Shown here one piece after another: positions 1,729 through 49,765 of a DNA stretch of 50,254 bases. The notes beneath the pieces were generated by a model. It made no database searches. It saw only the letters and a list, made by a program, of their open reading frames with translations, and was not told where the DNA came from. The stretch is taken from positions 1 to 50,254 of the forward strand of contig NW_021835780.1 in the NCBI RefSeq assembly GCF_006345805.1, in the 5' to 3' direction. The position numbers and the translations under genes are program-made. This stretch comes from Octopus sinensis. Its lineage: Eukaryota. Position 1 is the stretch's first letter, and the number at the start of each line of letters is the position of its first letter.

Positions 1729-2213
1729 TTAGAAAAAACACCTTTTATCGATTCAAAATGAAAAATTACACCATCTAGAAAATTACATATAATTCATTTT
1801 GAATTGATAAAAGGTGGTTTTTTTTACTAATTTATATTTTATACTTTGTGAAATTTGATTTAGTATTTCAAAATTGAATTTTCCTCAATAACCATATAAT
1901 CTATCACTATAAGCACGCGTCTCGAAGTAAGCCGACAGAGTGTGCTCATGACTTAGTGTTTGCTTCTTCCATCGGAATAGGTAAGTATTTCATTTATTTC
2001 TTACCGTATTTATCGCTGACGGGGAGAAAATTCTTATAAATTAACTCTGAAATTGGGACCAATACGATAATAACGGAATATTTTAGAAATTTCTGTCGGC
2101 TTACTTCAAGACGCGTGCATATAGTGATAAATTATATGGTTGTTCACGATTTGTCTATTTTCGGCATATTTGGCATTAGAATATTTTCTTTTGCCCTTGT
2201 TTATAAGTTGTTT
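1726..2213 (+). mobile_element. Penelope-like non-coding terminal fragment(s) with two inverted repeats and a hammerhead, between (TA)n tracts
   Basis: IR 1726-1762/1791-1832; IR 1889-1948/2088-2141; hammerhead in the spacer of the second IR. Confidence 0.6.
2004..2076 (+). ncRNA. Type I hammerhead ribozyme motif (core CUGACGG, A9G)
   Basis: Helix I TTATCG/CGATAA extended past an internal loop by CCGT/ACGG; CTGACGG; helix II GGAG..CTCT; GAAA; helix III ATTGG-GA-CCAAT; cleavage triplet AUA. Confidence 0.7.
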
Positions 2214-2267
2214 ATATATATATAGTGTGTGTGTGTGTGTGTGTGAGTGTATGTATGTATATATATG

Positions 2268-2351
<84 letters not shown>

Positions 2352-2371
2352 ATATATATATTATGTATATA

Positions 2372-2414
<43 letters not shown>

Positions 2415-2766
2415 ATTGTATATGTATGCATAGACAGATAATCACAGACAGACAGAGGGAGACATGTGATTTAGTATGTAAGTAACTCTACCAACCAAGA
2501 TAAGACCACCAATAAGAAATGCTGACAACATATACATCACCGACAGACAGCCGTACATGGACAAACAGACCCGCAAATCGATAACACATCTGATGAAGTA
2601 AACGTAGATTATTATATATTTTTTTATGTATGTTTGTGCGCGCGTGTGTGTGTGTGTGTCTGTGTCTGTATATGTATTTATATTATATACATACATATAT
2701 ATATTTGTATTTATATACATACATATATATATATATTATATATATATAAATATATGTATATATATC

Positions 2767-2823
<57 letters not shown>

Positions 2824-2954
2824 GTGTATATATAGATATATATATGTAAATATGTGTGTATATATATGTATATATGTGAATATTTATATACATGAGCATA
2901 TGTATATATATTATATAATTTAAAGGCAATCTAGTTGTGGCAATAATATATTAC

Positions 2955-2996
<42 letters not shown>

Positions 2997-3091
2997 TATA
3001 TATATATAATATATAATCTATATATATATATATATAATATATACAGATATATATATATATATTACAAATATATATATATATATATATAATC

Positions 3092-3135
<44 letters not shown>

Positions 3136-3192
3136 GTATATATATATATATATAATATATATATTATATATATCTATATATAATATATATAT
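2213..3192. repeat. Compound (TA)n/(TG)n/(GACA)n microsatellite region
   Basis: Direct reading of the sequence. Confidence 0.95.
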
Positions 3193-3484
3193 TATTTCCA
3201 CTGTTAAATGTCCTTTAAATGATTTTTTACCGCCACAATCCGCCATCGTCGTCGTCGCCAATGTGTAGCGATTCTGGATTCTACTCAGGTTAAGTGAATG
3301 TTCGTCTCTATAGATCTCATGTCGAATAGTAATCATTATATCTGTGTCACACATTCTCATCCATGAAGTTCGTGCGGAAAGACATATAAATCAGCGAGAC
3401 AGTTACCTATTTTACAATAAAACTTTCTTTCTGTTTTCATAGCCATTGATTTACGTTTCAGGAGGCAGCGATTCTTTTGATCGC

Positions 3485-3697
3485 TGTTGTTGTTGTTGTT
3501 GTTGTAGTTGTTGTTTTTGTTGTTGTTGTTTCTGCTCTTGTTATTGTTGTTCTTGTGGCTGGTTATTCTAGTCGTTGCAGTAAATTTAACTGCTGCCATT
3601 GCTGGTGGCGCTGATGAACCTCTGATGATGATGATGATCATGATCATGATAATGATCATGGTGATGAAGTTGATAGTGATGGTGGTTGTGGTAGTGG

Positions 3698-3730
<33 letters not shown>

Positions 3731-3936
3731 CGACAAGAACGTCGATGGTCACGATGATGTCAACGACGACGATGATGGTGGGGATGAAGTTGTGGTGGTG
3801 GTGGTGGTGTTGATGATGATGTTGATGATGATGATGATAATGATGATGACGACGACGACGATGATGCTCGTGATGATGATAATGATGATGTCGATGTTGA
3901 TGATAATGACGATGATGCTCATGATGCTGCTGCTAC

Positions 3937-3969
<33 letters not shown>

Positions 3970-4577
3970 CTACATAGTTATAGTTTTGCTGTTTCTGTTA
4001 GTGATATTGCTGCAACTGGTTTTTGTTGTTCGTACTAATGTTGTACTTGTTATGGGCAGTATTATTATTATTATCATTTTTCTTGTTGTTGTTGCTGCTG
4101 CTGCTACTGTTACTAATAGTGCTATTGTTGTTATTATTGTTGTAGTTATTGCTTCTGTTCATCCTATGCCGTATTCCCGCCGCAACATCTGACACAGGTT
4201 GTTAACAGTTCTTCTGACGCTGTAGGAAGCGAAATCTTCACATCAAAGAAACAGGCACCTATATTTCAAAGATGCAAAGGAAAGAGGAAGTAATTTCCCA
4301 AAATATTAAGAAATATATTTACCATTATCGTTTTCTTCTTCTTCTTCTTCTTCTTCTTCTTCTTCTTCTTCTTCTTCTTCTTCTTCTTCTTCTTCTTCTT
4401 CTCCTCCTTCTTCTTCTTCTTCTTCTCCTTCTTCTTCTTCTTCTTCTTCTTCTTTTTCTTTTCTTCTTCTTCTTCTTCTTCTTCTTCTTCTTCTTCTTCT
4501 TTTCTTCTTCTTCTTCTCTACTTCTCTTCCTCTTCTTCTTCTTCATCATCATCATCATAATCATCATTATCATAATG

Positions 4578-4609
<32 letters not shown>

Positions 4610-4649
4610 AATCATCATCACCATTATCATCATCATCATCATCACCATT

Positions 4650-4694
<45 letters not shown>

Positions 4695-4702
4695 TCACCA
4701 TT

Positions 4703-4756
<54 letters not shown>

Positions 4757-4790
4757 GTCGCCGTCATCATTGCCATCATCAATTTTGGCG
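3485..4790. repeat. Compound trinucleotide microsatellites (TTG, GAT, GGT, CTT, CAT)
   Basis: Direct reading; source of the poly-L/M/I/R ORFs in the track. Confidence 0.95.
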
Positions 4791-5102: not shown

Positions 5103-5157
<55 letters not shown>

Positions 5158-5191
5158 ATACGTTTGCAACTCACGCACACACAGACACAGA

Positions 5192-5235
<44 letters not shown>

Positions 5236-5242
5236 TATATAT

Positions 5243-5500: not shown

Positions 5501-5532
<32 letters not shown>

Positions 5533-5539
5533 TGGAGGG

Positions 5540-6309: not shown

Positions 6310-6343
<34 letters not shown>

Positions 6344-6375
6344 TAATAATAATAATGATGATGATGATGCAGTAT

Positions 6376-6935
6376 AAATGCCCTGATGCAGTACCAGGCA
6401 GTGGCTTTCATGGCTTCTGATCTTAACTGATTGGAAGTGTTATCATGTACATTGTTTTGTCTCGGTATAAAAGATGGGCTACAGCAAATATTCTGCTCAA
6501 TACCACAGATTTGCTTGTCAGTTGTTTGACCTTACCCAGTTGAGCATGTCCCTTCTGTGGCTGATAATATGTGCATCTCTGATCACGAGCAGAAGTAGTG
6601 GGGGAGCATCATAGCCGTGTGTTGAGAGGGATTCTTTGGGGTTTGAATAATTCACCTCTGGAAACATGGGTGTTTCGTTCAACATCCTTAAACAACCCTT
6701 ACTCAGGGACCTTTTGAGTATGATGGGTTACTCGACCAGAAGAAAATTCTAACTGGGCATCCACCTGCAAGGTCATGTGCTGTTTATCTTGTTTTGAAAT
6801 CAACATATCGCGCACATATGGTTGTGATGCATGTGCCTAGTGTAGCTTTATCCGATGGGTAGTCATGATGGGTATACTGGGTTTCGTATATTTTACCCCA
6901 GTGTCACTTTGATGGCATGAACTGCTCTCTCACTC
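6376..6935 (+). mobile_element. ~560-bp non-coding element embedded in (AAT)n, copy 1
   Basis: Same start (AAAT.CCCTGATGCAGTACC) and end (CTCTCTCACTC-(AAT)n) as 42301-42857, colinear throughout. Confidence 0.85.
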
Positions 6936-6991
<56 letters not shown>

Positions 6992-7070
6992 TAAAAATAA
7001 TATAATAATAAAATAATACTAATAATAATAATAATAATTAATAACAATAATAATAATAATATAATAATAA

Positions 7071-7115
<45 letters not shown>

Positions 7116-8099: not shown

Positions 8100-8150
8100 C
8101 AATAACAACAACAATAATAATAATTATTATTATTATTGTTATTATTATTA

Positions 8151-8188
<38 letters not shown>

Positions 8189-8249
8189 GTTGTTATTATT
8201 TTTGTTGCTATTATTATTGTTGTTATTGTTATTGTTGCTATTGTTATTA

Positions 8250-9319
8250 TGGCTCACGAAGGGGAAAACCATCTTAATTCCCAAATCAAATGAAACAACA
8301 AAACCAGAAAACTACAGACCAATAACCTGCCTCCCTACTATGTTCAAGGCATTTACTGCAGTGATATCGCAAAGGCTGAACAAGCACCTGGACGAAAACA
8401 AACTGTTCCCAGAAGAGCAGAAAGGATGCCGCAAAGGCTCATATGGCTGTAAAGATCAACTAATGATAAAACGATGGCAAGAAAAGCCCCTTCATGGTAA
8501 ATACTGCACTAAACTAAACGCAAAAGAAATAGACAAAGAAAAATCCCAGCAATGGTTGAGAAGCTCAGGACTCAAAGCAGAAACAGAGGGATTTTTAATT
8601 GCAGCACAAGACCACAGCCTCCCCACCAGAAATTACCAAAAACATGTAATGAAAAGAAATATTACAAGTAACTGCAGAATATGTGGAGATGGACAAGAAA
8701 CAATAAATCATATTATCTCTAGCTGCCCAGTCCTGGCTAAGAAGGAATATATTCACAGACATGACAGAGTTGGAACCTACATACATTGGAAGCTATGCCA
8801 ACATTATGGAATAACAACAGAAAAAAGATGGTATAGGCACACACCAGAAAAGGTCACAGAAAACGAGAAAGCAACCATACTCTGGGATATGCCGATACAC
8901 ACAGATAGAGAATTAAGGCCAACAGACCAGATATAGTTGTCAGAGATCATGCTTTCTAATGATGTATCAATACCGGCAGATGACAACGTGTCTCTAAAAG
9001 AAATGGAGAAACTCTCAAAATACAAAGACCTGGAAATAGAGGTAACTAGAATGTGGAACCTGAAAACAGAAACAATTCCTATCATAGTAGGTGCATTAGG
9101 CATGATAAAAAATATTCAGACAAATACATAACAAAAACACCAGGACTTACAAACACATATAACATACAGAAAATTGCACTACTAGGCACTGCACACATCC
9201 TACGCAGAACACTTTCCATACAATAACCATCAGAGCATCACAACAAATCACAGCACATACCCAAGGCACACAGAGCTGCGCTCGGTAGTGAAGTGAAAGC
9301 ACGCTATAAAATAAAACTA

Positions 9320-9507: not shown

Positions 9508-9556
9508 TAACAACAATAATAATAATAATGATAATAACAACAACAATAATAATAAT

Positions 9557-10887
9557 GTGGCAGGGACTGTCTAACACAGCTCTTACACCACATTAAAGAT
9601 GTACTCAAAGCCTTGGGAACAGGTTCGAACTCTGACGTCATATACCTTGACTTCAGTAAAGCGTTCGACAGGGTAGACCATAACATCCTACTCTCAAAAT
9701 TGGCAAATGTTGGAATCCGTGGAAAAGTTCTACACTGGATTCAGTATTTCCTAGCGAATAGAACACAACATGTTGTAGTTGATGGAGTCCACTCAAACCC
9801 AGCAAAAGTCACCAGCGGTGTTCCCCAGGGAACTGTTTTGGGTCCGCTACTCTTCCTAATTTATGTAAACGACCTTTCCAGTGTCGTACATCACTGCAAA
9901 ATGAAAATATTCGCTGATGACACTAAGCTCCAGCAAATCGTCAATGAAGAAGCAGACCGAACTCAACTCCAGTCTGACCTATATGCTGTGAGTCAATGGG
10001 CAGACAGAAACAAAATGCAACTGAATGAGGAAAATTTGAGCTGATGCATTTTGGAAGAAATTCCTCACTAAAACAACCCACTCTCTTCCTTCAGGGGAAC
10101 CGCTCACAGCCTCTAACAATATCAGAGACCTGGGTGTAATTGTTGATGACGATCTCAGTTGGAGTGCACACATCAACAAGAAGGTCGATACAGCTCGTAG
10201 GATGAGTTCCTGGATCTTAAGAACTTTCCGGTCCAGAGAACAAGGTGTCATCATACCACTTTTTTCATCCTTTGTACGGCCACACCTTGAATACTGCTGC
10301 CCACTGTGGTCTCCTCACACAAGACAAAACATCTCCAGAATTGAGTCACCCCAGAGGGCTCTCACTAAACAAATTGAAGGCATGGCTGCTCTCGACTATT
10401 GGGATCGCCTTAAAGCCTTGAAACTTTACTCCCTCCAGCGTCGCCGTGAGCGGTATCATTTGTACGATGTGAAAATATACCGCCAACTTTGCCAAAACGA
10501 CCTAAACATTAGCTTAGGTTCATCCGAGACTTGGACCACGGGCTATACGTCCCCTGCCAATTCAAGATCACAACATACATGTACACTGCAACATAATTTC
10601 TTTTCCTCAACAGGGAGATCAAAGAGGAAAAGGATCCATCAACTTCAAACAGAGTCTGGATAGATTCCTTCAAAGAATACCAGATAAGCCACCCATAATT
10701 GGATACAAACTCACCCAACAAGAACTCACTACTTGAACAAACTGATACAACTCACCCAACAAGAACTCACTACTTGAACAAAACTTGACTTAAACAGGAT
10801 TCGAATAATCCTATCAGGTGGTGCTATTAAGTTAGACATGGCCTGGACTAATCTCTGGTCGAAACATATCTAAGTTTATCTAAGTTT
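9557..10887 (+). mobile_element. CR1-type LINE, 5'-truncated (RT domain to 3'UTR), frameshifted
   Basis: DVIYLDFSKAFDRVDH, SGVPQGTVLGPLLFLIYVND, FADDTK, VRPHLEYC..WSP, LYSLQRRRER; 3' stem-loop and ATCTAAGTTT x2 tail; (AAT)n on both sides. Confidence 0.9.
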
Positions 10888-12095: not shown

Positions 12096-12137
12096 CCTAG
12101 TAATAATCCTAGTAATAATAATGATAATATAAATACA

Positions 12138-12520
12138 TTTTCCCTCTCTGTAGTCACTACTTATAACACAACGTAGTTTACAGACATCCTGTTTACATTC
12201 AGCACCAGAATTCGACTAAAATATACATCTGGTCTTCTACTGATTTTAAGAGACGATATTTGGCTCATATTAAGTCATTTTTCTAATATTAAGCGAAGAT
12301 CATCCACTGCATTAGCAAATTCTATCCACACTTACGCTCAGATCATTTCCTATGAGATAATCTAGTCTACGACTAAGTCTGAAATATCTTATCAATGTGG
12401 CCACACTACATGCAGTTTGTGCAACTGGGAATCTTTGAGAATATGATGAGAAAATTGGAAATATCTCCTTAAAATACAACTTTCTGTCGGCGTCGTTTAA
12501 AACGTTTCCTTTTTTCCACA
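12138..12520 (+). pseudogene. Decayed Penelope-like GIY-YIG endonuclease domain
   Basis: HNVVYR...KIYIWSSTDFKRRYLAHIKSF/...STALANSI...YQCGHTTCSLCNWE...CRRRLKRFLF resembles the Penelope pattern VVY..YIG..FK.R...H..SF..ST.LS..C.LC..E..CRH. Confidence 0.7.
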
Positions 12521-14077: not shown

Positions 14078-15600
14078 TAATTATTATTTTCAAAATAATC
14101 TTTCCAAAGGAATGTGTTCATTGCTATATCAGATGAAGTTGATCTTGGTTTAGTTATGAATAAATCAGATGGCAAGATATATAGAAAAAACTGTACAAAT
14201 CTATGCTAGTTGTAAAAATAACATTATTGGCTTTTTTTGTCAACATAAAATCGTATAGTTTTCAATATTTTCACTCATAATGATTCTAATTCAAAAAAGG
14301 CTTTTTATTAATTTGTAGTACAGTTAATTTTAATACATTTGCTTCAGTTTGGATTTTAGATTTAATCTGATAATCATATATTCTTTTGAAGGTTGGACTC
14401 CTTCATTTTCCATGCGATCATGTGAGATGGTTCTCAACTCTCAACCCTTCCCCTTTATTTTCAGATTCCTGAGACTCATTGCATAATGATTTAAGCATTT
14501 ACACTCCACAACTTTTTCATCATTTACTTTGCATAATGCTGGAAAATACTAGTAAAATGTTGCAACAATTTTGAGTTAAGAAGAAATGACGCACGAGTAA
14601 TAGTTTCTCTTTTTTTATTCCTTGAAGAATATTGTTCTCAAAGACGCTGATAACAAATTCGTTTTTACTTCTTAAAGAATATTGTTCCAAAAGACACAGG
14701 TATAATTAAATGGCAAGTTTCTTCTAAATCTTTATTTTTGCCAACAAAAACTGGATCGAGGATTCAGCCTCCAGTAATTTTGTTCGCTCACAACGCAAAT
14801 GTTTTAAGAATTTTCAGTGGGGCGATGGTTATACATAAGAATTTGTAGATTATTCCATTCGGCTTCTAATACTTTGTCTGTGGAAACAACCACTCTTGGG
14901 GCCCTAGAGATGGACTTTTTTTCATCATCATCGTCGTCGTTTAACGTCCGATTTCCATGCTGGCGTGGTTTGGACGGTTTGACTAAGGACTGGCAAGCCA
15001 GAAGGCTGCGCCAGGCTCCAATCTGATCTGGCAATGTTTCTACAGCTGGCTGCCCTTCAATCAAAGTTAAAATAGTATTCCTGGTGAGAGGTTAACAATT
15101 AAGTAAAATCTCCAATTCCTTTTCCAGTGCATGCTTTATAAAACTTCGTCATTTTTTAAGGGACTGTCGTGAAAGATTTCGCATATTTTTCTTTCTAGAT
15201 TATTGCTTTGTTAATTTTCTTGAATCTCTAGGGAAGATTCAATTTTATTTTTATCTTCGAAAATTACTTGAAATTGCTTGATAAGTCAAGGTCTTCTTAA
15301 TTTTCATTAACTAAAGCTTCTTCCTCCTCGCTGCATTCTTCAACTATAACCTTGGTCTTATTTTAAAATACAGCACATCAAAAACAACTAAATGAACAGC
15401 GTGAGCAACGAATTACTAATGAAAGGGTATAACTTCTTTCAAAAATTTTACGATCGGTGAAGCTCCATTTGTGGTGTAATCAATTATATGCCAACTTAAT
15501 TCAAAACCAAATTCTTCTAATCCCTCAGAGATCACTTCGGCAATTCCAACTGATGGGCTAGTAATTCCTGTTCAATTAAGCTCGATGGACCAATGCTAAT
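14078..15600 (-). pseudogene. Decayed hAT-superfamily transposase
   Basis: Minus strand LEEFGFELSWHIIDYTTNGAS...AHAVHLVVFDVLY, KICEIFHDSPLKNDEVL, EKELEILLNC, EAEWNNL, C-terminal LFITKPRSTSSD..KDYF*; resembles hAT TTDGAS, CxxH, DCxTRWNS and dimerisation regions; many stops. Confidence 0.7.
14920..15058 (-). mobile_element. Short retroposed insertion (LINE/SINE 3' end with (GAT)n tail) inside the hAT relic
   Basis: GC-richer 140-bp block ending in (GAC/GAT)n on the minus strand; hAT similarity resumes on both sides. Confidence 0.55.
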
Positions 15601-16029: not shown

Positions 16030-16265
16030 ATACAAATGAGAAGGATGACCATTATGTGGACAATCCTAACGCTAGAAGTAGATCCGCTATGGTCTTACCA
16101 CTAAGAAATGTTCTTAAGAAAAATTTAGCAAACACCAGAACGTAAGCGCTTACGTTCTGGTGTTTGCTAAAAATTTCTTAAGAACAGTTCTTAGTGGTAA
16201 GACCATAGCGGATCTACTTCTAGCATTAGGATTGTCCACATAGAGGTCATCCCTCTCATTTGTAT
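16030..16265. repeat. Near-perfect 236-bp palindrome with no spacer
   Basis: Symmetry axis AAGC|GCTT at 16147/16148; 118-bp arms with few mismatches. Confidence 0.95.
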
Positions 16266-16671: not shown

Positions 16672-16925
16672 ATAATATTGTCCAAGGCTCTCGAAGCTCG
16701 TAGTAGATAAAACAGGGCAACTGATGAAGGGAATGTTCTTTATGTTCTCTGTCCTCATGTCTCTATTTCTTTCGTTGTTCGAAAAAAAGTGGTTTTCCAT
16801 GGTTTTTTTTTTTCTTTTTTCATATTCTTGTTTTTCATGTTCACGTTTTTTTGAGGTCCTGTACCCAATATATGCATGTGTATACACATATATATGTAGA
16901 TATGTACATATATGTATGTATATTT

Positions 16926-16960: not shown

Positions 16961-17743
16961 CACAGGAGTGGATGGGTTCAGTCCCACTTCGTGGCACGTT
17001 GGCCAAATGTCTTCCGACCAAAGCCTTTTGAGTGGATTTTGTTCACGGAAACTGAAAGAGGTCCGGTATGTGTGTGTATGTATGTGTCAGTGTTTGTCCC
17101 CAAACATCGCTTGACAGCCGATGGTGATGTGTTTACGTCCCTGTACCTTAGCGGTTCGACAAAAGAGTCCGACAGAATAAGTAGTAGGCTTATAAAGAAT
17201 AAGTCTTGGGGTTGATTTTCTCGACTAAAGGCGGTGTTCCACCATGGCTGCAGTCAGCTGACTGAAACAAGTAAAAGGAATAAAAGAATTAAAAAATATG
17301 TATATATGTATTATATATATGTATTGGTTACGTGTATGTAACTTAGAATAACCTTTCTAAGTTATTCTAAGTTATTCTAAGTTACACACATAACCATATA
17401 CATACATATATATATATACATATATACATATTTTATTCTTTGTATGTATATATTATATATATATATATAATATATTATATATATATATATATATTGTCAA
17501 AGCGCTAGAAGTCGCTCGAGTCGTAGTAGATAAAACAGGGGACAACTGATGAAGGGAATGTTCTTTATGTTCTCTGTCTCATGTCTCTATTTCTTTCGTT
17601 GTTCGAAAAAAAGTGGTTTTCCATGGTTTTTTTTTTGTTTTCATATTCTTGTTTTTCATGTTCACGTTTTTTGAGGTCCTGTACCCAATTAGCATGTGTA
17701 TACAAATAATATGTAGATATGTACATATATGTATGTATATTTG

Positions 17744-25960: not shown

Positions 25961-26128
25961 TAGTTATCGCCATACTAATATGGTAGTCTATAAATATAGA
26001 CTAAAACTGTCGCTGATTAGCTCCAAGAGGCCATCGCCTCTAGCTAGCTATGCGATGGCCTTTGGAGCTAATCAGCGATAGCTTTAGTCTTATATTTATA
26101 GACTACCATATTAGTATGGCGATAACTA
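25961..26128. repeat. Fold-back with ~77-bp arms abutting (TA)n
   Basis: TAGTTATCGCCATACTAATATGG...GCCATCGC / GCGATGGC...CCATATTAGTATGGCGATAACTA. Confidence 0.9.
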
Positions 26129-26180: not shown

Positions 26181-26254
26181 TATATATATATATATATATA
26201 TATATGTCTGTACATGTGTGCGGTGTTTCAATGTATAACATACACGCTCTGCTG

Positions 26255-27000
26255 TACTAGTTCACTTTCGCTGTTTACAGCAGTGCTCGAAAGGAAGGAG
26301 TGTAGCGCGTAATCGTCGCATTGGCCATGACAGAGAGTTATCATTGCGATACCTGCTCAGAGCCCTAGGCAAAATTGCAGAAAGTGTATGGGCAGGAGTG
26401 TATGAGCCGATCACAAATGTACGAATGGTTCAGCCGTTTCTAAAATAACAGAAAAAATGTCGATATTGACGAAAGTTTGGGGAGAACCGCGACTAGCAGA
26501 ACTTAGGAAAACATTGCAGATGTGCGTGAAGCTGTGAGGGGAATCGTCGAATTAATATCTGTGAGCTATCAGAGGATTGGCAGATTAGTTATGGTTCAGT
26601 TCAGTCCGTTATCACTAACGATTTGGGTATGAGATGCGTGTCTGCCAAGTTTGTGCCAAAACTGCTTTCAGCTGACCAAAATGACACCTCGGATCTCAGT
26701 TGTACAAGATCTCGTTCATAATGTCGAGAGCGATGGAAACTTTTTGAAAACTTTGCGTAGGCCCCTGAGCAGGTATCACCAAGCTTTTGGCAAAATTTGA
26801 TGTAAATTCTATACTCAACTTTCTCTGTTACAGTCAATGCGACGATCGCACGCCACATACCTTCCTTCCAATCACTGCTGTGAACAGAGGAAGTGAGCTA
26901 GAACGTTAAAACTTAGTGCGCATGCCAAGCAGCTTCACTCTGCGTGCTTTACCTTCGTTACTATCACAACAGTCCGGATACTTATCGATCAGTATACGTA
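26255..27000 (+). mobile_element. Mariner derivative: N-terminal transposase fragment plus an inverted second copy of the 5' end
   Basis: Plus strand AKLQKVYGQECMSRSQMYEWFSRF...GRTATSRT.ENIADVR..NRRI.I.ELSED..ISYGSVQSVITNDLGMR.VSAKFVPKLL; minus strand TEKVEYRIYIKFCQKLGDTCS; TIR-like TACG...CTGATCGATAAGTATCCGGACTG at the right end. Confidence 0.85.
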
Positions 27001-30753: not shown

Positions 30754-31348
30754 AATTAGTCAAAGGGCATATTAAATATGTCTACCTGCTGGAAAAAGCA
30801 GTCAAAACTCTCATTTAAATCGCCAAAATACATTGATAATAACTACAGAAAACAAACGCCCGAAAGCAAACGGGTTAAGGCAATCTCTCAGCACCCATTC
30901 ATGCATTTGAACTCATGTGGGCTGCTTTCTGGACTGGCATTACAGCCTTAACCTCCGCAGCACGCCTTACCATGAGGGAGAGCTGAGGAGGGTGAGGGTG
31001 TAATGCCAGTCCAGAAACCAGTCCACGTGAGTCCAAATAGATGAATGTATGCTGAGTGATTGTCTTAGCCAGTCTGCTTTTGGACAGTTGCTTTCAGTAA
31101 TTATTATCAATGTATTTTGGCGATTTAAATGAGAGTTTTGACTGTTATTTCCAGCAGCTAGATATAATTAGTATGCCCTTTAATTAATTTTAATCCTTCA
31201 GCTATTTAATGCTTTTGGCGGGGCCTGCAATCGCCAATATTATTGATTCTGTTATTATCACTTTTTTAATTGATACACTAGATAATAATAGAGTAAATGA
31301 TATCTTCGCAAATAGTTTCCGTGAATTATTCGCTCCATATTGGAATTA
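30754..31348. mobile_element. Fold-back copy of the hammerhead-bearing element also found at 46114-46570
   Basis: ~205-bp imperfect inverted arms 30754-30960/30983-31190; right arm continues to ~31348; (TA)n and (CA)n flanks. Confidence 0.85.
30978..31029 (+). ncRNA. Decayed type I hammerhead motif
   Basis: CTGAGGA (30983-30989)...GCCAGTCCA-GAAA-CCAG-TC-CACGTG; a more decayed mirror copy lies on the minus strand at ~30914-30966. Confidence 0.55.
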
Positions 31349-32757: not shown

Positions 32758-32805
32758 AAATTTTTTTCCTCTGTCTTCCCTTCTCGGGATCTTTCCTTCT
32801 CCTTT

Positions 32806-32840
32806 GTTTCCGACGAAGAGCTCCGCTCGAAACGTTAAAC
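32806..32840 (+). ncRNA. Minimal type I hammerhead (core CCGACGA) within a ~180-bp element 32760-32938 ending at (TA)n
   Basis: GTTT-CCGACGA-A-GAGC-TCC-GCTC-GAAA-CG-T-T-AAAC; helix I GTTT/AAAC; palindromic ACGT helix III. Confidence 0.75.
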
Positions 32841-33081
32841 CCTCCTTCCCTTCTTTCCTGAGCGTCAAATAATACTTTAATTGTTTCACGTCCTCGCGTT
32901 GCTGTGTTTTTTTTCTGTGTTTTCTTGTTTGGATTAACTATATATATATATATATATGCACAACATTTTCAAATCACTTATCTTTATCTTCAAAAAATAA
33001 TGATAAAGTGGCCAGCGAACATAACTTAATAGGTAATATATATATATATAAGATATATATATATATATTATATATATATAC

Positions 33082-33341: not shown

Positions 33342-33505
33342 AGTTGAAATTCATAGGAAAACAAAAGACGAATGTAGGTGTATGAACAACAGCAAGTATA
33401 TTAGTTTGACACTCGGGAAAAATGAAAAAGTCTTTTACATTTCAATCCCACGCTCTTTAACAGAAAGGAATAAGAGAAAATAAACAGAGAGAAAATGAAA
33501 AAAGT
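33342..33505 (-). mobile_element. Related short element with a decayed minimal hammerhead (33432-33467)
   Basis: Minus strand CTTT-CTGTTAA-A-GAGC-GTGG-GATT-GAAA-TG-T-A-AAAG; downstream TTCCCGAGTGTCAAACTAATA resembles TTCCTGAGCGTCAAATAATA at 32856-32875. Confidence 0.6.
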
Positions 33506-33578
33506 CATCTAGATTTCAGCGCTCCAGTATAACGAATACATATATATATATGATATAAACTTATGTACATAATCATTT

Positions 33579-34617: not shown

Positions 34618-36020
34618 ATATATAGGGGTGGGAGATTTCACAAAAAAACAAAGCTGCTCCGTTTTGCTTCTGGTTAAACTACAAAGTAAGCAAACAGCAG
34701 TAAGTAGCGGGTGCACTTTAAAATCGTGGATGGTTTCTGTATTTTGTACTTTATTCCTCTTATGGATAAATAACTTGAGAGGCTTCGCTATGATACTTGT
34801 CAATATGATGTGCTCTAAATGAGAAGCAACTTTATTATTATTGCTCCAAGAGTCTGAAAGATTGCCTGCTCTATCAAAATCATTTTCCATTTCTTTTCAT
34901 AAGCAGTAAATACAGATAAAACTGTGTTGTTTTACAGATTGGAGCAGTGATAATACAGTATTGTGACTATAGTCACAAATGTCACCTGACTAGTCACGTT
35001 CACTAACACGTTCCACAGACGTGCAGTCTCCTCTCACTGATTTTTATCACTACCTCTACAGTGACCTTTTTTTCTTCTTCTTTGCAGAGCTGGCTGCTCT
35101 CCTTTCAGATCATCCTGGTTCAGTCGCCTCTTCTCTTCTCGAAGCTCATATTGTATCCATTCGAATTCACCCCACCCCACCCCTGCTAACCCCTACCCTC
35201 AATCTTTAATTATCTGAACGCTAGCCTATTAAGAATTCAAAGAAAACCCACGTTTGTCTTTCAAGCATCAATTTGCAAGTATTCACGAGGAATACTCACC
35301 ACACCAATCTCACAGGCTTCATAGAAGTTGCAGTGTCCATTGATAAAACCTTGTCCTCCAAATCAAGCCAATGTTCTTATTCGTGATGCGAACCATCGAC
35401 CCCTTACACCAGCAGTCCAGTCTGACAACCAATCAACTCACCCATCTGCGACGTTTAAAACCATGATAATCAAAATGATTATCGTATCATAAGATATCTG
35501 ATGTGTAAGCTGACGCAACAGGCAATATTTCGTTCTTTGTTGTTATTAATGTTACAGCCATTGATGGTAATGTACCTGCTGCCGTTGTTGTAGAGAGTCT
35601 TGTTGTTTATGTTTTTGTTTTGAATTTGACAATATTGAACCAAAATATCAGTAGTTCGTTGGGTTTAGTCAGTCATTATTAATTGAAACGAAAAAAAAAA
35701 ATAGCATAGAGCAATACCATATTTATCGATTATCGATTATCAATGGTAGAGTGGGAGAAATGAATGCAATTTTTTTAAGTTCTATCAGTGCGACTGCATC
35801 ACAAATAGAGATAATAACAGAACTTATAGAATTGTAGAACCAAACTTTTCCAAAAGAGTTAAAATCTGTTTGGTATGGACGTATGAGTGTTTATGTGTAT
35901 ATGATTATGAATACATGTGCGTGTGTGTCTGCTTATATATGTATGTAGATATGTAGATATATATGTATGTATGACTACACATATACATATACATGGAAAT
36001 GAATTATGTATTTTTGTATA

Positions 36021-36466: not shown

Positions 36467-39400
36467 CCTATTAAAGCCAAAAATTAAAAGAAGTTAAATT
36501 TTCTATAAAATTTTAATGTGGTAATTTGGATACTGCATTTAAATTACTCTTTGATTGATTGATTGATTCTAGTTTCAGCTTATGAGCTGTGGCCATGCTG
36601 GGGCACCACCATTTGCTGTTTATTACAAAAACAAAATTGAAGTTTTCACATTTTTTAAACGTTTGATAGATCATTGGAGTTTTCTGGTTCGTAAGAGTTT
36701 TGGTATAAAGAAAATGCTCTTTTACATTTCTTTATTGAAAAACTTACACTAGAAATCGTTAATATTAACGGTCATTATGACAGAAAATAACTTAATTTAT
36801 TATTACTGATAGTAAGCTACAAAACATGTATCCGGATGAAGTCCGACATTACATTTAATACATACAAACTTGGCACATTTTCCACATACTGCACACTTTC
36901 TCTGCGTATCATTTTTATTGACAAAGTGGGTTTTACCCTCAAATCTGTTTGAAGAACTTGTTTCATTGTTTTAGGACGGACTCTTCGCTTTGGTTCTAAA
37001 TCTTTTGCAGGAAGTAGTATCATAACATTTTCTCTGGTGAATTCCGAGAGAGAAATTTTCTTTTCAGTTTGATAGTACAAGGTCTATAGATTCACTATGC
37101 CACCATTGAGACAAAAGCGAAACAACGACCAATACCACTTTCTCTATCTAATTCTATTTCTGTAATGTTCCCTCATTTTATGAGAAATATCTATTCCCTC
37201 CCCATTCGTCTGTTGTATAACTTAGCGATATTGGGTTGTGGAACAGTAACCTATTTTCTTTCGGTTTTCTTCCATCGCTTACAACTTCCAACTTCAAGCA
37301 AAGCTTTTTCTTTTCAATTATTTGGAACTAAAGTAACTTGGGTAAAGATGTCTTGCCACCATAAAATGGCAGTCCTGCTTTAGGACGAATATTGCTGTAA
37401 TTTAGCCCCAGGAGACATCGTCTCCAGCTGGCTATACGACACGATCTGTGTCCTTACATTTTCGAACAATTACAGCAACATTAGTCCTAAACCAGGACTG
37501 CCATGTTATGTTGGCAACCAATCTTTACTCCAAAGTACTGTTGCTGAATATATCTCGTTGTGAGATTTACAATAGTAACCTTCTAAAGTAACTTGGTTAT
37601 TATTGTTCCACCTAACAAGAGTAACTCCATTTGTTCGATCTTCAGCTGCCCAATATACACCTCACTGTGCATTACTTCGGTTCTTTAAAAGTGTCGGCTC
37701 AATTCGATCTTTCCTGAGACTTCCAACAAAGACACTCGTGCTTAACAGAGACTGTATCAAGGATAAAGAAGTGAAATAATTGTCCATAAGATTCAAGCAC
37801 CCTGACATACAAAACCTAAATAATGTATTTCTGTTACTGAAGATCCTGCCACTTGTCCCCTGCACCAGTACACACATAAAACTTAATCAAATACTACCCT
37901 TCTGTTGTTGTTGATACCAAAACTTAAATCCATAACGAATAGGCTTTTCTCTTGTAAACTGCTTCATTCCATGGTACCCGTAGTAAGGCTCCAGTGCTTC
38001 ATCAAGAGAGAAAGTTTTTATCTATCGGTAGAATGAACACACAGAATTTCCCAGTTAGATGGTCTAGGAGAGGCCTAATTATATTAAGATTGCCACAAAG
38101 ATCGATTGTCATGTTATCGTTGAAGTGTATATATTGGTGAATCTTTTCAAATTTATTTCTACTCATAGAATGGCTTACTAGAAAGTTATTTGCATCTAGA
38201 TGAGTCTCCTAATACATTTTTAAACGGAGCTTTCTCATACCCTAACAATAAAAGGACTCCAAAATATTTGTAAAGATTTTTCAGCAGACGAAGTAAATTA
38301 CGTACCTCCTTTTTCGAATGCTTATTCAACTGTTTCTTTGTATATGTGTTCCATCATTTCTTCAGTAAAGCATAATTTGAAGATGTCAAAAAGCTTACTT
38401 TCATTTCCCTTTATGTTCTTTATAATTCCAGGTTTTAATTCGTTTACCTAGTACTCAGCTGTTTTGGAAGTGTTTTTAATGCTTTAGAAGCCCACGTACA
38501 CGAAGTTTTTGCTGCACTTCCACACTTTTTTCACGGAAAACTATCAGAAAGATTTCTGTGCTAATCTTGATTTTGCAGTCAAATTTCTGCGCTTTATGAA
38601 AGTACACCATGACCAATGTCTCTAAGATTTGCTGGTGCCTCTTCGCAATCATTGCCTGCATCATCTTTATCTGAATCTAGGCCATCATTTGGGGCACGCA
38701 AAACAAATCCAAGTTCTTGTGCATCCTCAATTTCAGCCGCCAATAATTCGGAATGCTCACTTGCTTCGATGACGTTCAATAGTTCATCTGCGTCCCTTTC
38801 GACATCAAGATTTCTCTTCGGCATCATTGTTTTGAAAACGAAATGAAACACTTATAAACTTTTCAGAGCTAAATGTAAAAAATATATTTATTTTGCAATT
38901 CTTAATAGACCCTTAAATATATTTACTAGCAAATACAGCAAATAAAGTTTTTAAAAAAAGACAAAACAATAAGTACAATTGTGCGTCAAATATGAATTCT
39001 ATAATATTCTGAAATGAACGCTTCGATTCGCAGCGTATGATTTATCATACTCAGGGGAAAAAACACTTAATAAATTCAACTTACGATGCAATACATGGAT
39101 AATTTATCCTGTTCATGCGATTGTATTAGCATTATCAGGCGTTTGAGAATAAAATTATTTCTGTATACTTAATAAATCAAAACATTCAAAATATTTTTGT
39201 TTGAAATATCATTTCAAGTTAAGACATAAGTTGCAGAATAAAAAATATTAAAGTTTTGGGATTCTATATCGCTACAAAAATATTGAGCATAAATGTGCTG
39301 TCTATAAAGCTCACTTGACCAGATCAAAATGACTGCTGAAAGAAAACTTCACAACAAATTATTAAATGAAATTATAAGGCCAAATCTGCCAAATGTTGCT

Positions 39401-39527: not shown

Positions 39528-39916
39528 TTAACACGTTGTGCTCTCATTTACACGGCAAATGGAGCTTTATTAGGATAAAAATAATCATGTCTGCACATGT
39601 GCATGTTTGGTTTCTATTTATGGAAATGTAACTTCAGTAGTTCATTTTCTACGGTATAATAGTTTTAAGAATGTGAGACAAATAACCGTTTGAAAATTGC
39701 TTAGTTTTGCTTTGATATCAATAGTTAACACAGTGTGGGAGCAACTCAGAAATCACTGCTCCGAGAACCAAGCATTGCTGTGCAAATCGAGGACTTCATT
39801 AAGCTACAACACTACACTCTACGTCTCCGCGTATTTATAGCTTGATAACAGACAAGATCCTGAAACACATATACACACACATATATATTTATATAATCAG
39901 ACGATGAATAATTGTC

Positions 39917-40169
39917 TCTTTAGTAGAAGAATGGGAACATTACTACATTACAAAAGACCATAATCAGTAGATATAACATAGTTTTAAAAACAAACAAAAA
40001 GCGAAAGAATACAGCACGGACGCGGCTGAAGTTGAGGCCAACTTTAGACAGACTTCAGCCACAACCCTGTAGTATTCTTGAGATATTCTTTTGCTTGTAG
40101 AATTACGTTTCATCTAATGATTACTGTTTTCTGTAATGGAGTAATGTTCTCATTCTTCTATTAGAAAGA
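39917..40169. repeat. Imperfect ~250-bp fold-back
   Basis: TAGTAGAAGAATGGGAACATTAC... / ...GTAATGTTCTCATTCTTCTATTAG; inner AAGAATAC..GGCTGAAGT / ACTTCAGCC..GTATTCTT. Confidence 0.8.
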
Positions 40170-42245: not shown

Positions 42246-42300
42246 AAATAATAATAATAACAACAACAACAACAACAACAATAATAATAATAATAATAAT

Positions 42301-42857
42301 AAATTCCCTGATGCAGTACCAGTCAGTGGCTCTCATGGCTTCTGATCTTAACTGATTGGAAGTGTTATCAAGTACATTGTTTTGTCTTGGTATAAAAGAT
42401 GGGCTACAGTAAAAATTCTGCTCAATACCATAGATTTGCTTGTCAGTTGTTTGACTTTAACCAGTTGAGCATGTCCCTCAGTGGCTGACGATATGTGCAT
42501 CTCTGATCATGAGCAGAAGTAGTGGGGAGCATCATAGCCGTGTGTTGAAAGGAATTATTGGAGGTTTGGATAATTCACCTTTGGAAACATGGGTGGTTCG
42601 TTCAACATCTTTAAACAATCCTAATTCAGGGACCTTTAGAACGGGATGGGCTACTCGACCAGAAGAAAATTCTAACTGGGCCCCACGTGCAAAGTCATGC
42701 GCTGTTTATCTTGATATGAGATCACCATGTTGCGCACATATGGTTGTGATGCATGTGTCTAGTGTACCCTTATCAGACGGGTAGTCATGATGGGTATGCT
42801 GGGCGTCATATATTTTACCCCAGTGTCACTTTTATGGCATGCTCTGCTCTCTCACTC
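42301..42857 (+). mobile_element. ~560-bp (AAT)n-embedded element, copy 2
   Basis: Colinear with 6376-6935, same ends. Confidence 0.85.
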
Positions 42858-42888
<31 letters not shown>

Positions 42889-42914
42889 TAATAATAATAA
42901 TAATAATAATGATG

Positions 42915-42975
<61 letters not shown>

Positions 42976-42998
42976 TAATAATAATAATGATAATAATA

Positions 42999-43029
<31 letters not shown>

Positions 43030-43083
43030 TAATAATATCGAAAAATACCTTAGGAATGGAACCCAGGTTCGAAATTTCCCCAA

Positions 43084-43129
43084 GACACCTGATGAAAGCT
43101 GGGAGGTATATCAGCCGAAACATTGTGTT
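43084..43129 (+). ncRNA. Near-intact minimal hammerhead within element 43037-43202
   Basis: GACAC-CTGATGA-AA-GCTG..CAGC-C-GAAA-CA-T-T-GTGTT; helix III ACAT may be a CpG-decayed ACGT. Confidence 0.6.
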
Positions 43130-45849: not shown

Positions 45850-45902
<53 letters not shown>

Positions 45903-45996
45903 GGAGTAAACACATAAATGTGAAACAAGGTGGAAAAAAGAGTACTCAAATACCAGTGGTAGAGTAATATGCTTTATTTTAGCAGCAGAAAATTCA

Positions 45997-46047
45997 ACAA
46001 AATCTGTTACTCTGAGTTTCTCGTTGCCGTTCATCAGACAGTTTTTG
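45997..46047 (-). ncRNA. Type I hammerhead with canonical core in a ~150-bp element (45900-46048) bounded by (TA)n
   Basis: CTGT-CTGATGA-ACG-GCAA-CGA-GAA-ACTC-A-GAGT-A-ACAG; helix I extends through CAAAA/TTTTG. Confidence 0.8.
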
Positions 46048-46056
46048 CTATATATA

Positions 46057-46113
<57 letters not shown>

Positions 46114-46570
46114 AAATTAGTCAAAGGACATACTAGGTATGTCTACCTGTTGGAAATAACAGTCAAAACTCTCATTTAAATCGCCAAAAGACACTGATAA
46201 TAACTACAGAAATCAACCGTCCGAAGGCAAACGGTTTAGGACAATCTCTCCGCATACATTCAAGTATTAGGACTCATGAGGACCGGTTTCTGGACTGGCA
46301 TTACAGCCTCTCCTTCCTCAGCACGCGTTACTATGATGGAGAGCTCCAACCCATCATGTTGAAATCTGCGTGGCATCTGATTCATTTTGCACCAAATCAT
46401 GGCAGCCATCAGTGTGAAAATAATTTTAATACGGAGCAAACAAATAATGAGAAAATATTTGCGAAGATATCATTGACTCTATTACTATGAGAATCAATAA
46501 TGTAGGCGATTGCAGGACCCCCGGAAAAGCTTTAAATAACTGAAGGATTAAAATAAATCAAAGGACATCA
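46114..46570 (-). mobile_element. ~437-nt hammerhead-bearing monomer with short terminal redundancy (retrozyme-like or Penelope pLTR-like)
   Basis: TCAAAGGACAT at 46121 and 46558; hammerhead at 46275-46327; homologous to 30754-31348. Confidence 0.75.
46275..46327 (-). ncRNA. Type I hammerhead motif with ACCGGT palindromic helix III
   Basis: CGCGTG-CTGAGGA-A-GGA-GA-GGC-TGTAAT-GCC-AG-TCC-A-GAAA-CCGG-T-C-CTCATG. Confidence 0.65.
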
Positions 46571-46739
46571 TACCCAACACTTGAACATTTACTTATATAC
46601 ATATATATATGTGTGTGTGTGTGTGTATGTATGTGTATGTATGTAGGTATTAGGTAGGTAGGTAGGTAGGTAGGTAGTATAGTACAAATGCACGAACCTC
46701 GGACCTTGGGCCACGCTGTTATTTCTGCTAAATCTTAAT

Positions 46740-46782
<43 letters not shown>

Positions 46783-47014
46783 TAAATATATATGTATATA
46801 TATATATATAATTAAAAATATATATGTATATATATACATATATAATTAAAAATATATATGTATATATATATATATAATTATAATATGTAGTATATATAGA
46901 TATAATTATAAATATATAGTATATATATATATATATATATATATGTGTATATTATTATATGTATAATATATATATGTATAATTATATATATGTATATATA
47001 TATATATGTATGTA

Positions 47015-47096
<82 letters not shown>

Positions 47097-47114
47097 CATA
47101 TATTTGGATAATAT

Positions 47115-47296
47115 ATCCCAGGACGTATTCTTTGGAAGCCTAGTACTTATTCTATCAGTCTCTTTTGCCGAACCGCTACGTTACGGGGGACGTAAACGCA
47201 CCACCATCTGTTGTCAAGCGATGTTGGGGGGACAAATACACAAACACAAATACACACACACACACACACACACACAACACACACACACACATAATA

Positions 47297-47339
<43 letters not shown>

Positions 47340-47452
47340 TACGACGGGTTTCTTTCAGTTTCCGTCTACCAAATCCGCTCAGAAGCTTCGGTCAGCCTGA
47401 GGCTATTGTAGAAGACACTTGCCCAAGGTGCCACGCAGTGGGAATGAACCCA
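47115..47452 (-). mobile_element. SINE family B, both ends clipped
   Basis: Reverse complement of the family body with its internal microsatellite. Confidence 0.85.
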
Positions 47453-48097
47453 GTAACATTCTTTTAGTCAGCAGTCTTCTAAAGTTTTTTTCGGACAACT
47501 GAATAACAAAATCAGATTCTACGTGAAAAATAACATCGATATACCAAATTTGAAAGAATAATACATTTTTGCAGCGAAAATTCAAAATGCAAATTTTGTA
47601 TATAGGTACGGTAACTTTAAACAGGTAGCAGTTCGGCTCGTTAAATAGGCACCGATGTGTCTTTGGCTTACGCTTAGCTAAAATTACCCAAAATTTGCAA
47701 ACTTTAAAAGCTATTAACTTTTTATATATTAACTTACGGCAAAAATGAATTCGATTTCCATAATTAGTATACATCAATACACCAAATTTAAAGTGAATTC
47801 GAACAAAATTATTAAAGGAACTTGAAAGTGAAAGCCAAACAGAAAACATCCTATATATATGTAATATGATATGCATATACTTAAGGGGTATTTATAAAAT
47901 ACATTGTATGCGAACGTATGCATGAAAGCACAAAAGTATATACAATCCGTAGCAAGCGAGTATGACTTAGAAATAAATGCCATGCCCTCGTTTGCTTACG
48001 GTGCCTATGCAGCAGCATATAGTCACAAACAACCAACACGTATATAATATATGTCTTATATATGTTTATATGTTTATATATAAAATATAATAATTAT

Positions 48098-48475
48098 AGA
48101 TGCAGGAGTGGCTGTGTGGTAATTAGCTTGCTTACCAATCACATGGTCTCGGATTCAGTTCCACTGCTTGGCACCTTGGGTAAATGTCTTCTACTATAGC
48201 TTCGGGCCGACCAAAACCTTGTGAGTTGATTTGTAGACGGAAACTGAAAGAAGCCCGTCGTATATGTGTGTGTGTGTGTATGTTTGTGTGTGAGTGTTTG
48301 TCCCTCCGCCATCGCTTGACAACCGATGTTGGTGTGTTTACCTTCCCATCACTTAGCGATTAGGCAAAAGCGACCGATCGAATAAGTAGTAGGCTTACAA
48401 AGAATAAGTCCCGGAGTCGATTTGCATGATCGCACTCGAATGACTGAAATAGATAAAAGAAAAGAATAAAAGAAT
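48098..48475 (+). mobile_element. SINE family B, near full length
   Basis: GCAGGAGTGGCTGTGTGGTAA...GGAAACTGAAAGAAGCCCGTCG...TGACTGAAA. Confidence 0.9.
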
Positions 48476-49214
48476 GCCTGTGTATGTGTACGCGTGTGTG
48501 TGTGTGTGTGCGTGTACGCGGACGTGTATCTGTGTGTGTTATAATATGCATACATACTTAACTTGCCATCCAGGCCTGTACGCAGTAGGTGCACGTGCAC
48601 TAGATATATCACTTTAAACAACTAGAATAAAACACTTTCTCCTTATAACAGCGCATCTGAAATACTGCTTACTAAATAACTGCAGCTATGATTGCTTCAG
48701 AAACTGAAATAGTTTATTTTCACAGGGAGCAAATTAATTGGTTCAGCTCCAGCCAATATCTCCTTCTGAACGTAAATTTGAAATTAAGTTAACTTCTATT
48801 TCTATACAAGTAATGAACCACGAACAAAATAATTTACTCCTAGTGAAATGTTCCCTTCAAATATCTTTTCCCCCTTTTTACTTTCTTAAATGTTTTCTGC
48901 TTGTGTAATGTGAAAGGTGCAATGTAATTAAGAAATCCTTATATACTCGTACTGAAGAGATTCACTTAAGCGAAATAGTGGCTTCTATACATGAATACTA
49001 AGGAGTTTATAGTTGAAACGAAAAGCGTGAATTTAATTAAATGAGTGTTTGAAGATTATATAATATTCTTCAATGCATTGCATTTAAAAGTAACATATTA
49101 AAGGTTTAAAAAAAAGCAAAATGAACTCCTAGCAGTACGATTTTCTCCCTTGCAGCAGAATGAAACAACCAATAAACGAAGTCATGTGTATGCCTGTATA
49201 TATATATATATATT

Positions 49215-49520
49215 ACGGAGATGTACTTGCATAGCGAGTGACTTGATCTGAGATCGTGTGCTGGAACGAAAATAATTGCACCATGCAAGGTGTTTACAGG
49301 CCATTTAAGAAACACACAAAACCGTTAGATTCACTTCAACATTTAAATTTAATTTGTCAAAATATTTTCGTCGCTTTGAGACCGCGACCTGTTCACTGAC
49401 AAAGGTTGTGCTACATCGTGCAGCACGAATTTTGACAAATTAAATTTAAATGTTGAAGTGAATCTAATGGTTTTGTGTGTTTCTTAAATGGCTTATAAAC
49501 ACCTTCCACACTGCAATTGT
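49215..49520 (-). mobile_element. Fold-back element (~90-bp arms) abutting (TA)n, with a hammerhead in the spacer
   Basis: Arms ~49271-49362 and ~49427-49520. Confidence 0.85.
49353..49403 (-). ncRNA. Type I hammerhead with G3:C8-swapped core (GUGAACA)
   Basis: TTTGTCA-GTGAACA-G-GTCGC-GGTCTCAAA-GCGAC-GAA-AATATT-T-TGACAAA; 7-bp helix I, 5-bp helix II, palindromic helix III. Confidence 0.8.
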
Positions 49521-49690
49521 TTAGGGGACCGGTAACTATTACAATATGTAGCGGCGATAGGTCAACACGTTGTTCTGAGACAGACCAAGGAATTTTTTAT
49601 TTTTAGATATAAATGAAGTACTTAAATGTAGTTGTGTTTTTAGCTTCTGCTCTTTTCATGATCACATGTGAGTATTTTATTTATATTCCC

Positions 49691-49765
49691 TCGTAAGCTC
49701 TACTGAAGAAGAATGTATCCTTTATAGAGATCAATTCCGAAATTGATTCAATATAGAGATAACGA
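49691..49765 (+). ncRNA. Type I hammerhead with canonical core CUGAAGA
   Basis: CTCTA-CTGAAGA-A-GAAT...ATTC-C-GAA-ATTGA-T-TCAAT-A-TAGAG; distal helix I TCGT/ACGA. Confidence 0.75.

Follow-up and report, generated by a model that had tools for sequence, protein, structure and literature searches.

The window analysed here is a stretch of 50,254 nucleotides (nt) from Octopus sinensis (contig NW_021835780.1, positions 1 to 50,254 of the forward strand), in which an initial annotation had listed about ten type I hammerhead ribozyme motifs and ascribed them to non-autonomous elements mobilised by Penelope proteins. We consider it likely that these motifs belong to short non-coding repeats bearing predicted type I hammerheads, which were likely laid down by Penelope-like enzymes, and that one family, a head-to-tail unit of about 440-470 bases, is likely a non-autonomous retrozyme. 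The evidence lies in the anatomy of the motifs, in the closure of this one family and in a shared geometry of insertion.

Motif anatomy, chance expectation and sequence groups

The window has about 34% guanine plus cytosine (GC), 20% of its bases are microsatellite, and it is rich in short repeats and retroelement pieces. Hammerhead-like letters are present at all ten sites, with C3 at 2016+, 30960-, 30983+, 32810+, 33463-, 43089+, 46037-, 46321-, 49396- and 49703+. Because a first, strict type I descriptor without extra bases recovered just one of the ten motifs, the descriptor was widened to accept all Watson-Crick combinations at 3-8 as well as one added base at the foot of helix II, and in this form it recovered six (2004, 32806, 45997, 46275, 49353 and 49691). 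The count of ten thus stands for the letters but falls to six for the descriptor, by which four motifs have an intact or compensated core together with the helices, two more have one core change and four are missed. Chance expectation was determined with 150 local dinucleotide shuffles of the window. Intact-core matches with any Watson-Crick 3-8 pair numbered 5 against a mean of 1.26, a count reached in none of the 150 shuffles; these five are four of the ten motifs and a match at 35971+, which lies in a masked repeat and likely recurs in shuffles. When one core mismatch was allowed and helix II was held to at least 3 base pairs (bp), 5 matches were observed against 1.71 (reached in 7/150 shuffles), and when helix I was additionally held to 5 of 6 pairs, 3 were observed against 0.49 (2/150).

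The motifs form six sequence groups, namely 30914/30978/46275, 2004/49691, 32806/33432, 43084, 45997 and 49353. The first group is one family, while 2004 and 49691 are distant relatives alignable over their full length, and 32806 and 33432 are probably related, their likeness having a z score of 3.5 that is yet within the maximum of the null. The proposed number of families (at least six) was therefore about right, but the statement that they share only core and topology fails for 2004/49691 and probably for 32806/33432. Placed on the hammerhead structure, 2004 and 49691 pair in 31 of 32 cells and have changed on both sides in 7 of 16 pairs, including all five pairs of lower helix I; control structures slid along the same alignment were 31-38% paired.

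The 49353 motif, a single copy in the window, has G3-C8 in place of C3-G8, the pair being kept. It also has a helix I of 7 bp, an extra G after A9, G10.1-C11.1, a helix II of 5 bp and AATATT as helix III, and it bears marks listed for Penelope minimal hammerheads in PMC4209133. In the laboratory a C3G/G8C double mutant gave partial rescue of cutting (PMC11167929), and natural hammerheads with U3-A8 are known (PMC3088659). A natural G3-C8 pair was not found in a literature search whose scope stopped short of Lunse et al. (dimeric Penelope hammerheads) and of the supplements of PMC4209133, PMC3088659 and PMC8557442, which may report it or other variants.

Helix III is a zero-loop palindrome in three of the ten motifs (ACGT, ACCGGT and AATATT) and one CpG-type transition away from a palindrome in three others (30978, 33432 and 43084, the last with ACAT against ACGT), with 30914 more decayed. 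The remaining three have longer helix III hairpins with a centre of 1-2 nt, which could close as monomers. All six helix III strings that had been called palindromic or near-palindromic are present, but true zero-loop palindromes are limited to ACGT, ACCGGT and AATATT; the rest are hairpins, and every hairpin forms an inverted repeat. The energies computed for self-duplexes of helix III range from -0.2 to -12.3 kcal/mol and are favourable for the hairpin type too. At helix II, an extra base stands between 9 and 10.1 in four motifs (32806, 33432, 43084 and 49353) and the G10.1-C11.1 pair is intact in two. In four motifs (30914, 30978, 46275 and 45997) an A directly precedes G12, which implies either a mismatch at 10.1-11.1 or a base insertion there.

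The closed unit of the 30914/30978/46275 family

A segment X precedes the motif in the 46275 copy and follows the tail in the 30978 copy (E 2e-19), so that the family is circularly permuted within the window. Public contigs were aligned to 46113-46590, the DNA contigs of run X1 amounting to 1824 records over all 30 bins. The X1 joints listed step back from 46563 to 46127, from 46558 to 46124 and from 46554 to 46116, with one contig each and a back-step of about 435-440 nt; three further X1 contigs step back 371, and others run unbroken from X via a segment Y into the motif. Among the loose ends listed, X-like letters stand past the tail in 38 contigs (agreement 0.61) and tail-like letters past X in 18 contigs (agreement 0.71), both matched by eye. 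A stretch of 30 nt that is missing from the 46275 copy is present at 30978 and in the loose ends, and the unit therefore measures about 437-467 nt, depending on its presence. No contig piece among those listed spans one whole unit. Of two runs guessed to be RNA, one has 81 contigs with the joint in 4 and the other 14 with the joint in 3, although such contigs show neither transcription nor circles, and a 21-mer of the family had 0 matches in metagenome scans.

The unit has 39% GC, a longest ATG frame of 49 amino acids and no Pfam match. With the majority letters of the contigs at 46277 (81%) and 46279 (96%), the 3' arm of helix I reads CACGTG and pairs with its 5' counterpart, and no core variant occurs among the 40 variant rows listed. 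On account of its size, its non-coding nature and its head-to-tail joint we liken the unit to a non-LTR (long terminal repeat) retrozyme, and judging from its letters it likely works like one, with self-cutting as a prediction.

This closure bears directly on a view that we regard as unlikely, in which autonomous full-length Penelope-like elements left all groups, also the present family, as 5'-truncated terminal repeats and a separate non-autonomous element does not exist. Such truncation is the published reading of single minimal hammerheads (PMC4209133), and the summed contig depth falls from about 168,000 in the tail to about 2,600 in Y, a roughly 60-fold drop that is not a copy number and is what 5' truncation would give. 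Against this stands the position of X, which directly follows the tail and also occurs about 100 nt ahead of the motif. Contigs connect X by way of Y to the motif and lead from the tail back to X; by this continuity the unit closes at about 437-467 nt, with no space left in which a protein could be encoded. In the other five groups the truncated-ends reading stands, and it is part of the reading we prefer.

In an observation of its own, a small GC-rich hairpin at 46215-46240 (-), some 45 nt past the cut site on the 3' side, recurs, as judged by eye, in three of three family copies and could be a protein-binding or priming site. Part of Y we take by eye to be a little like the end of a GIY-YIG domain, a point in favour of truncation; it has no Pfam match and is unconfirmed.

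Insertion geometry, Penelope proteins and the weighing of alternatives

In eight of the ten motifs a microsatellite lies 94-175 nt downstream of the predicted cut site, as compared with 33% of random positions that have one within 180 nt downstream and three of ten motifs that have one upstream; the downstream bias has a binomial p of about 0.001 with the inverted pair counted once. The downstream tract is of (TA) type in 6/10 motifs against 19% expected. At 30978 (325 nt) and 43084 (1575 nt) the distance is greater. The latter motif starts 46 nt behind the repeat 42247-43036, one of two 800-nt copies (89% alike; the other at 6317-7113) of an (AAT)n-ended repeat, so that the microsatellite beside it belongs to its neighbour. 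At three loci an adjacent inverted copy of the downstream sequence is placed upstream of the motif. Mere nearness to a microsatellite, which the initial annotation had emphasised, was rejected as evidence since 56% of unmasked window bases lie within 200 nt of one, which makes it background.

Truncation, inverted neighbours and (TA)n targets have been described for Penelope-like elements (PMC8557442), as have opposite-strand hammerhead pairs (PMC4209133). In Anolis Poseidon, the sole element studied in vitro, the cut made by the hammerhead falls at +26 and the start of reverse transcription at +111-118, with nicks in AT-rich sequence (PMC11167929), and the spacing between motif and microsatellite observed here is close to the distance of about 90 nt from cut to start in that element. 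Taken together, the motif anatomy, the abutment on microsatellites at the 3' side and the adjacent inverted copies support the proposal that the hammerheads are of Penelope type.

A mechanism consistent with these features would begin with a Penelope protein nicking an AT-rich tract, after which reverse transcription would be primed some 90-180 nt downstream of the hammerhead. Copying would usually end soon past the hammerhead, with an inverted second copy sometimes added, leaving stubs of 150-450 nt that would represent the first stretch copied by a Penelope-like enzyme. Multimeric source transcripts would be cut to unit length by the hammerhead, for which the zero-loop motifs would act as dimers via their palindromic helix III. 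Most copies in the window are decayed and probably without cutting activity, and five of the six groups could have come from either a full-length or a short template.

The claim of non-autonomous short elements accordingly holds for one of six groups, 30914/30978/46275, and the other five are equally well fitted by the 5'-truncated ends of full-length elements, the published reading (PMC4209133). That all six groups are independent non-autonomous families resembling retrozymes seems to us improbable. It is true of the one group that could be put to the test, the stubs of 150-450 nt are not accompanied by coding sequence, 45997 is flanked by (TA)n at either end, and animal retrozymes are derived from Penelope terminal repeats according to 10.64898/2026.07.22.740005. 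The other groups have one or two window copies each and no head-to-tail evidence, however, and truncated ends would look alike. We further put forward, tentatively and as rather doubtful, a more specific picture in which the ribozyme of the G3-C8 family is active beside a dispersed circular-RNA retrozyme of 440-470 nt with a dimer-dependent hammerhead and an atypical helix II base, inserted by Penelope proteins into microsatellites as monomers or inverted pairs.

For protein relics, Pfam was run on 60 frames, namely 58 of the 307 stop-free frames of at least 40 amino acids and two others, and it returned only reverse transcriptase pieces that do not look like Penelope (8124-8933 and 9556-10041) and a weak endonuclease piece. 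By eye, the frameshifted stretch 12167-12443+ resembles a GIY-YIG domain of Neptune or Naiad type, unconfirmed by any tool. Pfam gave there only a weak zinc-finger match (E 0.015, below the cut-off) and two homologue searches came back empty. It belongs to a segment, 12131-12470 (+), directly behind (TAA)n/(TAG)n tracts and about 10 kilobases (kb) from the nearest motif. The relics of Penelope proteins announced for the window hence come down to this one look-alike, left without confirmation by both kinds of search. Linkage of the motifs to Penelope reverse transcriptase or GIY-YIG frames was likewise not found in the window, where truncated copies would be without a frame. Among the repeats surveyed in Octopus vulgaris are 31 Penelope-like families with recent activity, and the word ribozyme does not occur in the main text of that survey, as excerpted (PMC13282606).

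Several points weigh against the reading we prefer. Among the 60 window frames submitted to Pfam, no Penelope protein was confirmed by a tool or linked to a motif. The motifs 30914, 30978, 33432 and 43084 were not recovered by the type I descriptor and were called by likeness or by eye, and 43084, with no downstream microsatellite within 1.5 kb, departs from the 3' pattern. Because the descriptor was tuned after the motifs had been seen, the shuffle counts lean toward the finding, and when a single core mismatch is allowed, the 9 matches observed against a mean of 5.39 were reached in 13/150 shuffles; the relaxed-core excess is thus barely, and not clearly, above chance, and the shuffle check, passed by the intact core, does not extend to the relaxed one. 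Five local Rfam scans covering seven of the ten motifs gave no hammerhead match at E<=10, nor was a hammerhead among the best 150 of 218 rows of a scan of the whole window. Predicted single-copy folds mostly lack the hammerhead shape, eight of the ten motifs having z scores above -1.5; the best is 49353, with a z score of -2.5 and helices I and II in the predicted fold. The covariation between 2004 and 49691 was read on a structure drawn from one of the two sequences, and its shuffle control is weak, 23/500 shuffles reaching the pair count with two sequences only. An A before G12 may cripple or reduce cutting. The 180-nt threshold was picked after the fact. As to the closed unit, two whole units in tandem were found neither in the window nor among the contigs listed, the loose-end and variant counts hold among the rows listed, run X1 is possibly from the same sample as the window, the raw-read run X22 had 0 reads on the unit and carries no weight as a test, and the whole unit in its 46275 copy folds no better than shuffles (z score -0.95).

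A further alternative, which we judge very improbable, is that in a window so rich in AT and in repeats some of the motifs arose by chance or are dead scaffolds, the closed unit being an ordinary minisatellite-like repeat with a non-cutting motif. The mean of 5.4 relaxed matches in shuffles, the failure of 33432 and 43084 in the scan and the extra A before G12 speak for it, as does the lack of cleavage in eight of nine predicted retrozyme dimers in 10.64898/2026.07.22.740005. The intact-core excess, the two-sided covariation, the compensated G3-C8 pair and the shared 3' geometry speak against it, as do the three helix III changes that are each one CpG-type transition from a palindrome.

Features of the window and comparison with known elements

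The features on which the preferred reading is built are collected in Table 1.

Table 1. Hammerhead-bearing repeats and associated inverted copies in the window
Feature	Position	Strand	Details	Basis
Type I hammerhead, A9G	2004..2076	+	Helix I of 5 and then 4 bp around a 3x3 loop; 4 bp in helix II and 4-5 bp in helix III; H17 at 2064	Descriptor
Inverted copy (92%) of 2092-2144, downstream of the 2004 motif	1887..1939	-		
440-470 nt family copy that forms the left arm in a head-to-head inverted pair	30755..30966	-	Decayed hammerhead 30914-30966; tail ends in (TA)n	
Copy of the 440-470 nt family	30978..31348	+	Hammerhead 30978-31029 (helix I 5' arm lost at the inversion), tail, segment X 31173-31348 to a (CA)n tract	
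Stub of about 180 nt, minimal hammerhead 32806-32840	32758..32938	+	U4C, extra A after A9, G10.1-C11.1, helix III ACGT; (TA)n end 103 nt past H17	Descriptor
Stub of about 200 nt, motif 33432-33467, probable decayed relative of 32806	33343..33540	-	Two core changes and a broken helix II; not callable alone	Missed by descriptor
Probable decayed minimal hammerhead	43084..43129	+	Intact core; 5 bp in helix I; helix II of 4 bp that follows an A.C mismatch	Missed by descriptor
Stub of about 150 nt, (TA)n on both sides, hammerhead 45997-46048	45900..46049	-	Core intact; 2-bp helix II flanked by A.A; helix III ACTC-A-GAGT	Descriptor
Slightly more than one monomer of the closed non-coding unit	46114..46568	-	X 46568-46421, Y, hammerhead 46327-46275 with GUC triplet, intact core and an additional A before G12, tail to G/(GA)n/(TA)n tract	
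Stub, minimal hammerhead 49353-49403	49214..49403	-	(TA)n end 147 nt past H17	Descriptor
Inverted copy (81%) of sequence downstream of the 49353 motif	49428..49522	+	Starts about 4 nt before the predicted cut site	
Type I hammerhead	49691..49765	+	Core intact; helix I built as in 2004; A.C at 10.1-11.1; (TA)n 130 nt past H17	

Further descriptor matches at 15135+, 23646-, 35971+ and, weakly, 48952+ were judged to be chance, as were all eight metagenome matches of a 19-mer of the G3-C8 motif, the flanks of which are unlike. A splice-donor-like GT(A/G)AGT at 1980-1985 and 49678-49683 (+) occupies the same aligned place just upstream of helix I in 2004 and 49691, and Penelope-like elements carry an intron at this place. 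A 200-nt block flanked by (TA)n occurs twice, at 16679-16887 and 17495-17708 (+), in a local duplication of 0.9 kb; it contains a perfect half core CUGAUGA at 16721 and 17546, within a long predicted hairpin and without GAAA or helix III, and a microsatellite follows these motifs at 163-167 nt, as at the hammerhead stubs. The block is possibly part of a Penelope-like tail, bearing a half-core or another ribozyme. Long local inverted repeats, 71-94% alike and without a hammerhead match, lie at 16033-16262, 25961-26128, 39915-40169, 37332-37539 and 1733-1822, several of them adjoining (TA)n. Among other transposon relics, broken non-LTR reverse transcriptase genes stand at 8124-9300 and 9556-10660 (+) between (TAA)n tracts, with RVT_1 matches of E 1.6e-6, accompanied by zf-RVT, and E 1.6e-20; we take their pieces 8124-8933 and 9556-10041 to be R4/Dong-like and CR1-like. 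Terminal inverted repeats of 83 nt (78%) surround a short relic at 26254-26904, which we take to read like a mariner transposase although it has no Pfam match, and broken frames at about 36800-38850 (-) resemble a piggyBac-type transposase, their pieces being without Pfam match.

Minimal type I hammerheads in Penelope pseudo-LTRs were described as several consensus families per genome, mostly in single copies, with dimer folding (Cervera and de la Pena 2014, PMC4209133), and the dimeric ones (Lunse et al.) are summarised in a review (PMC6765202). The motifs found here resemble those of PMC4209133 in their opposite-strand pairs (100-700 bp apart there), the extra base between 9 and 10.1, the short palindromic helix III and the covarying 3-8 pair; they differ, as far as that source was excerpted, in having G3-C8 rather than U3-A8 in one motif, an A before G12 in two groups and no motif beside an open frame. 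Non-LTR retrozymes comprise more than 6000 motifs in 16 families in coral and units of 350-390 bp in mussel (Cervera and de la Pena 2020, PMC7229834), and a Penelope origin of animal retrozymes was argued in a preprint (Li, Clavereau and Pollet 2026, 10.64898/2026.07.22.740005). The closed unit is like these in being a non-coding head-to-tail unit of a few hundred bases with GC below 50%, one type I hammerhead per unit and dispersed monomers. It is unlike them, on the excerpted texts, in being a little longer (437-467 nt) and in its zero-loop palindromic motif and odd helix II base; moreover, it occurs in the window as one monomer plus an inverted pair, with microsatellites at the ends, and it is known here from DNA joints, without full tandem dimers. 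With Neptune and Naiad elements (Craig et al. 2021, PMC8557442) the repeats share (TA)n or AT-rich targets, heavy 5' truncation and adjacent inverted copies, whereas Naiads are without canonical hammerheads in the excerpted account; with Anolis Poseidon (Frangieh et al. 2024, PMC11167929) they share AT-rich targets, reverse transcription starting there about 90 nt past the cut site.

Our literature search found no report of hammerheads or retrozymes in octopus or other cephalopods. In this sense the elements are uncatalogued, as had been supposed, but their kind and its diversity within one genome are published (PMC4209133, PMC7229834). The motifs are real, mostly decayed members of that published kind, with one group a short closed unit, and knowledge of the kind itself is unchanged by these findings. 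What they do is extend hammerhead-bearing Penelope stubs and retrozyme-like units to a genome for which our search found none reported. Moreover, the closed unit and the stubs bear the same insertion footprint, which makes a partnership of Penelope and retrozyme testable in one genome, where the partner should share the tail, and the naturally occurring G3-C8 core and A before G12 put the tolerance of the hammerhead core to the test.

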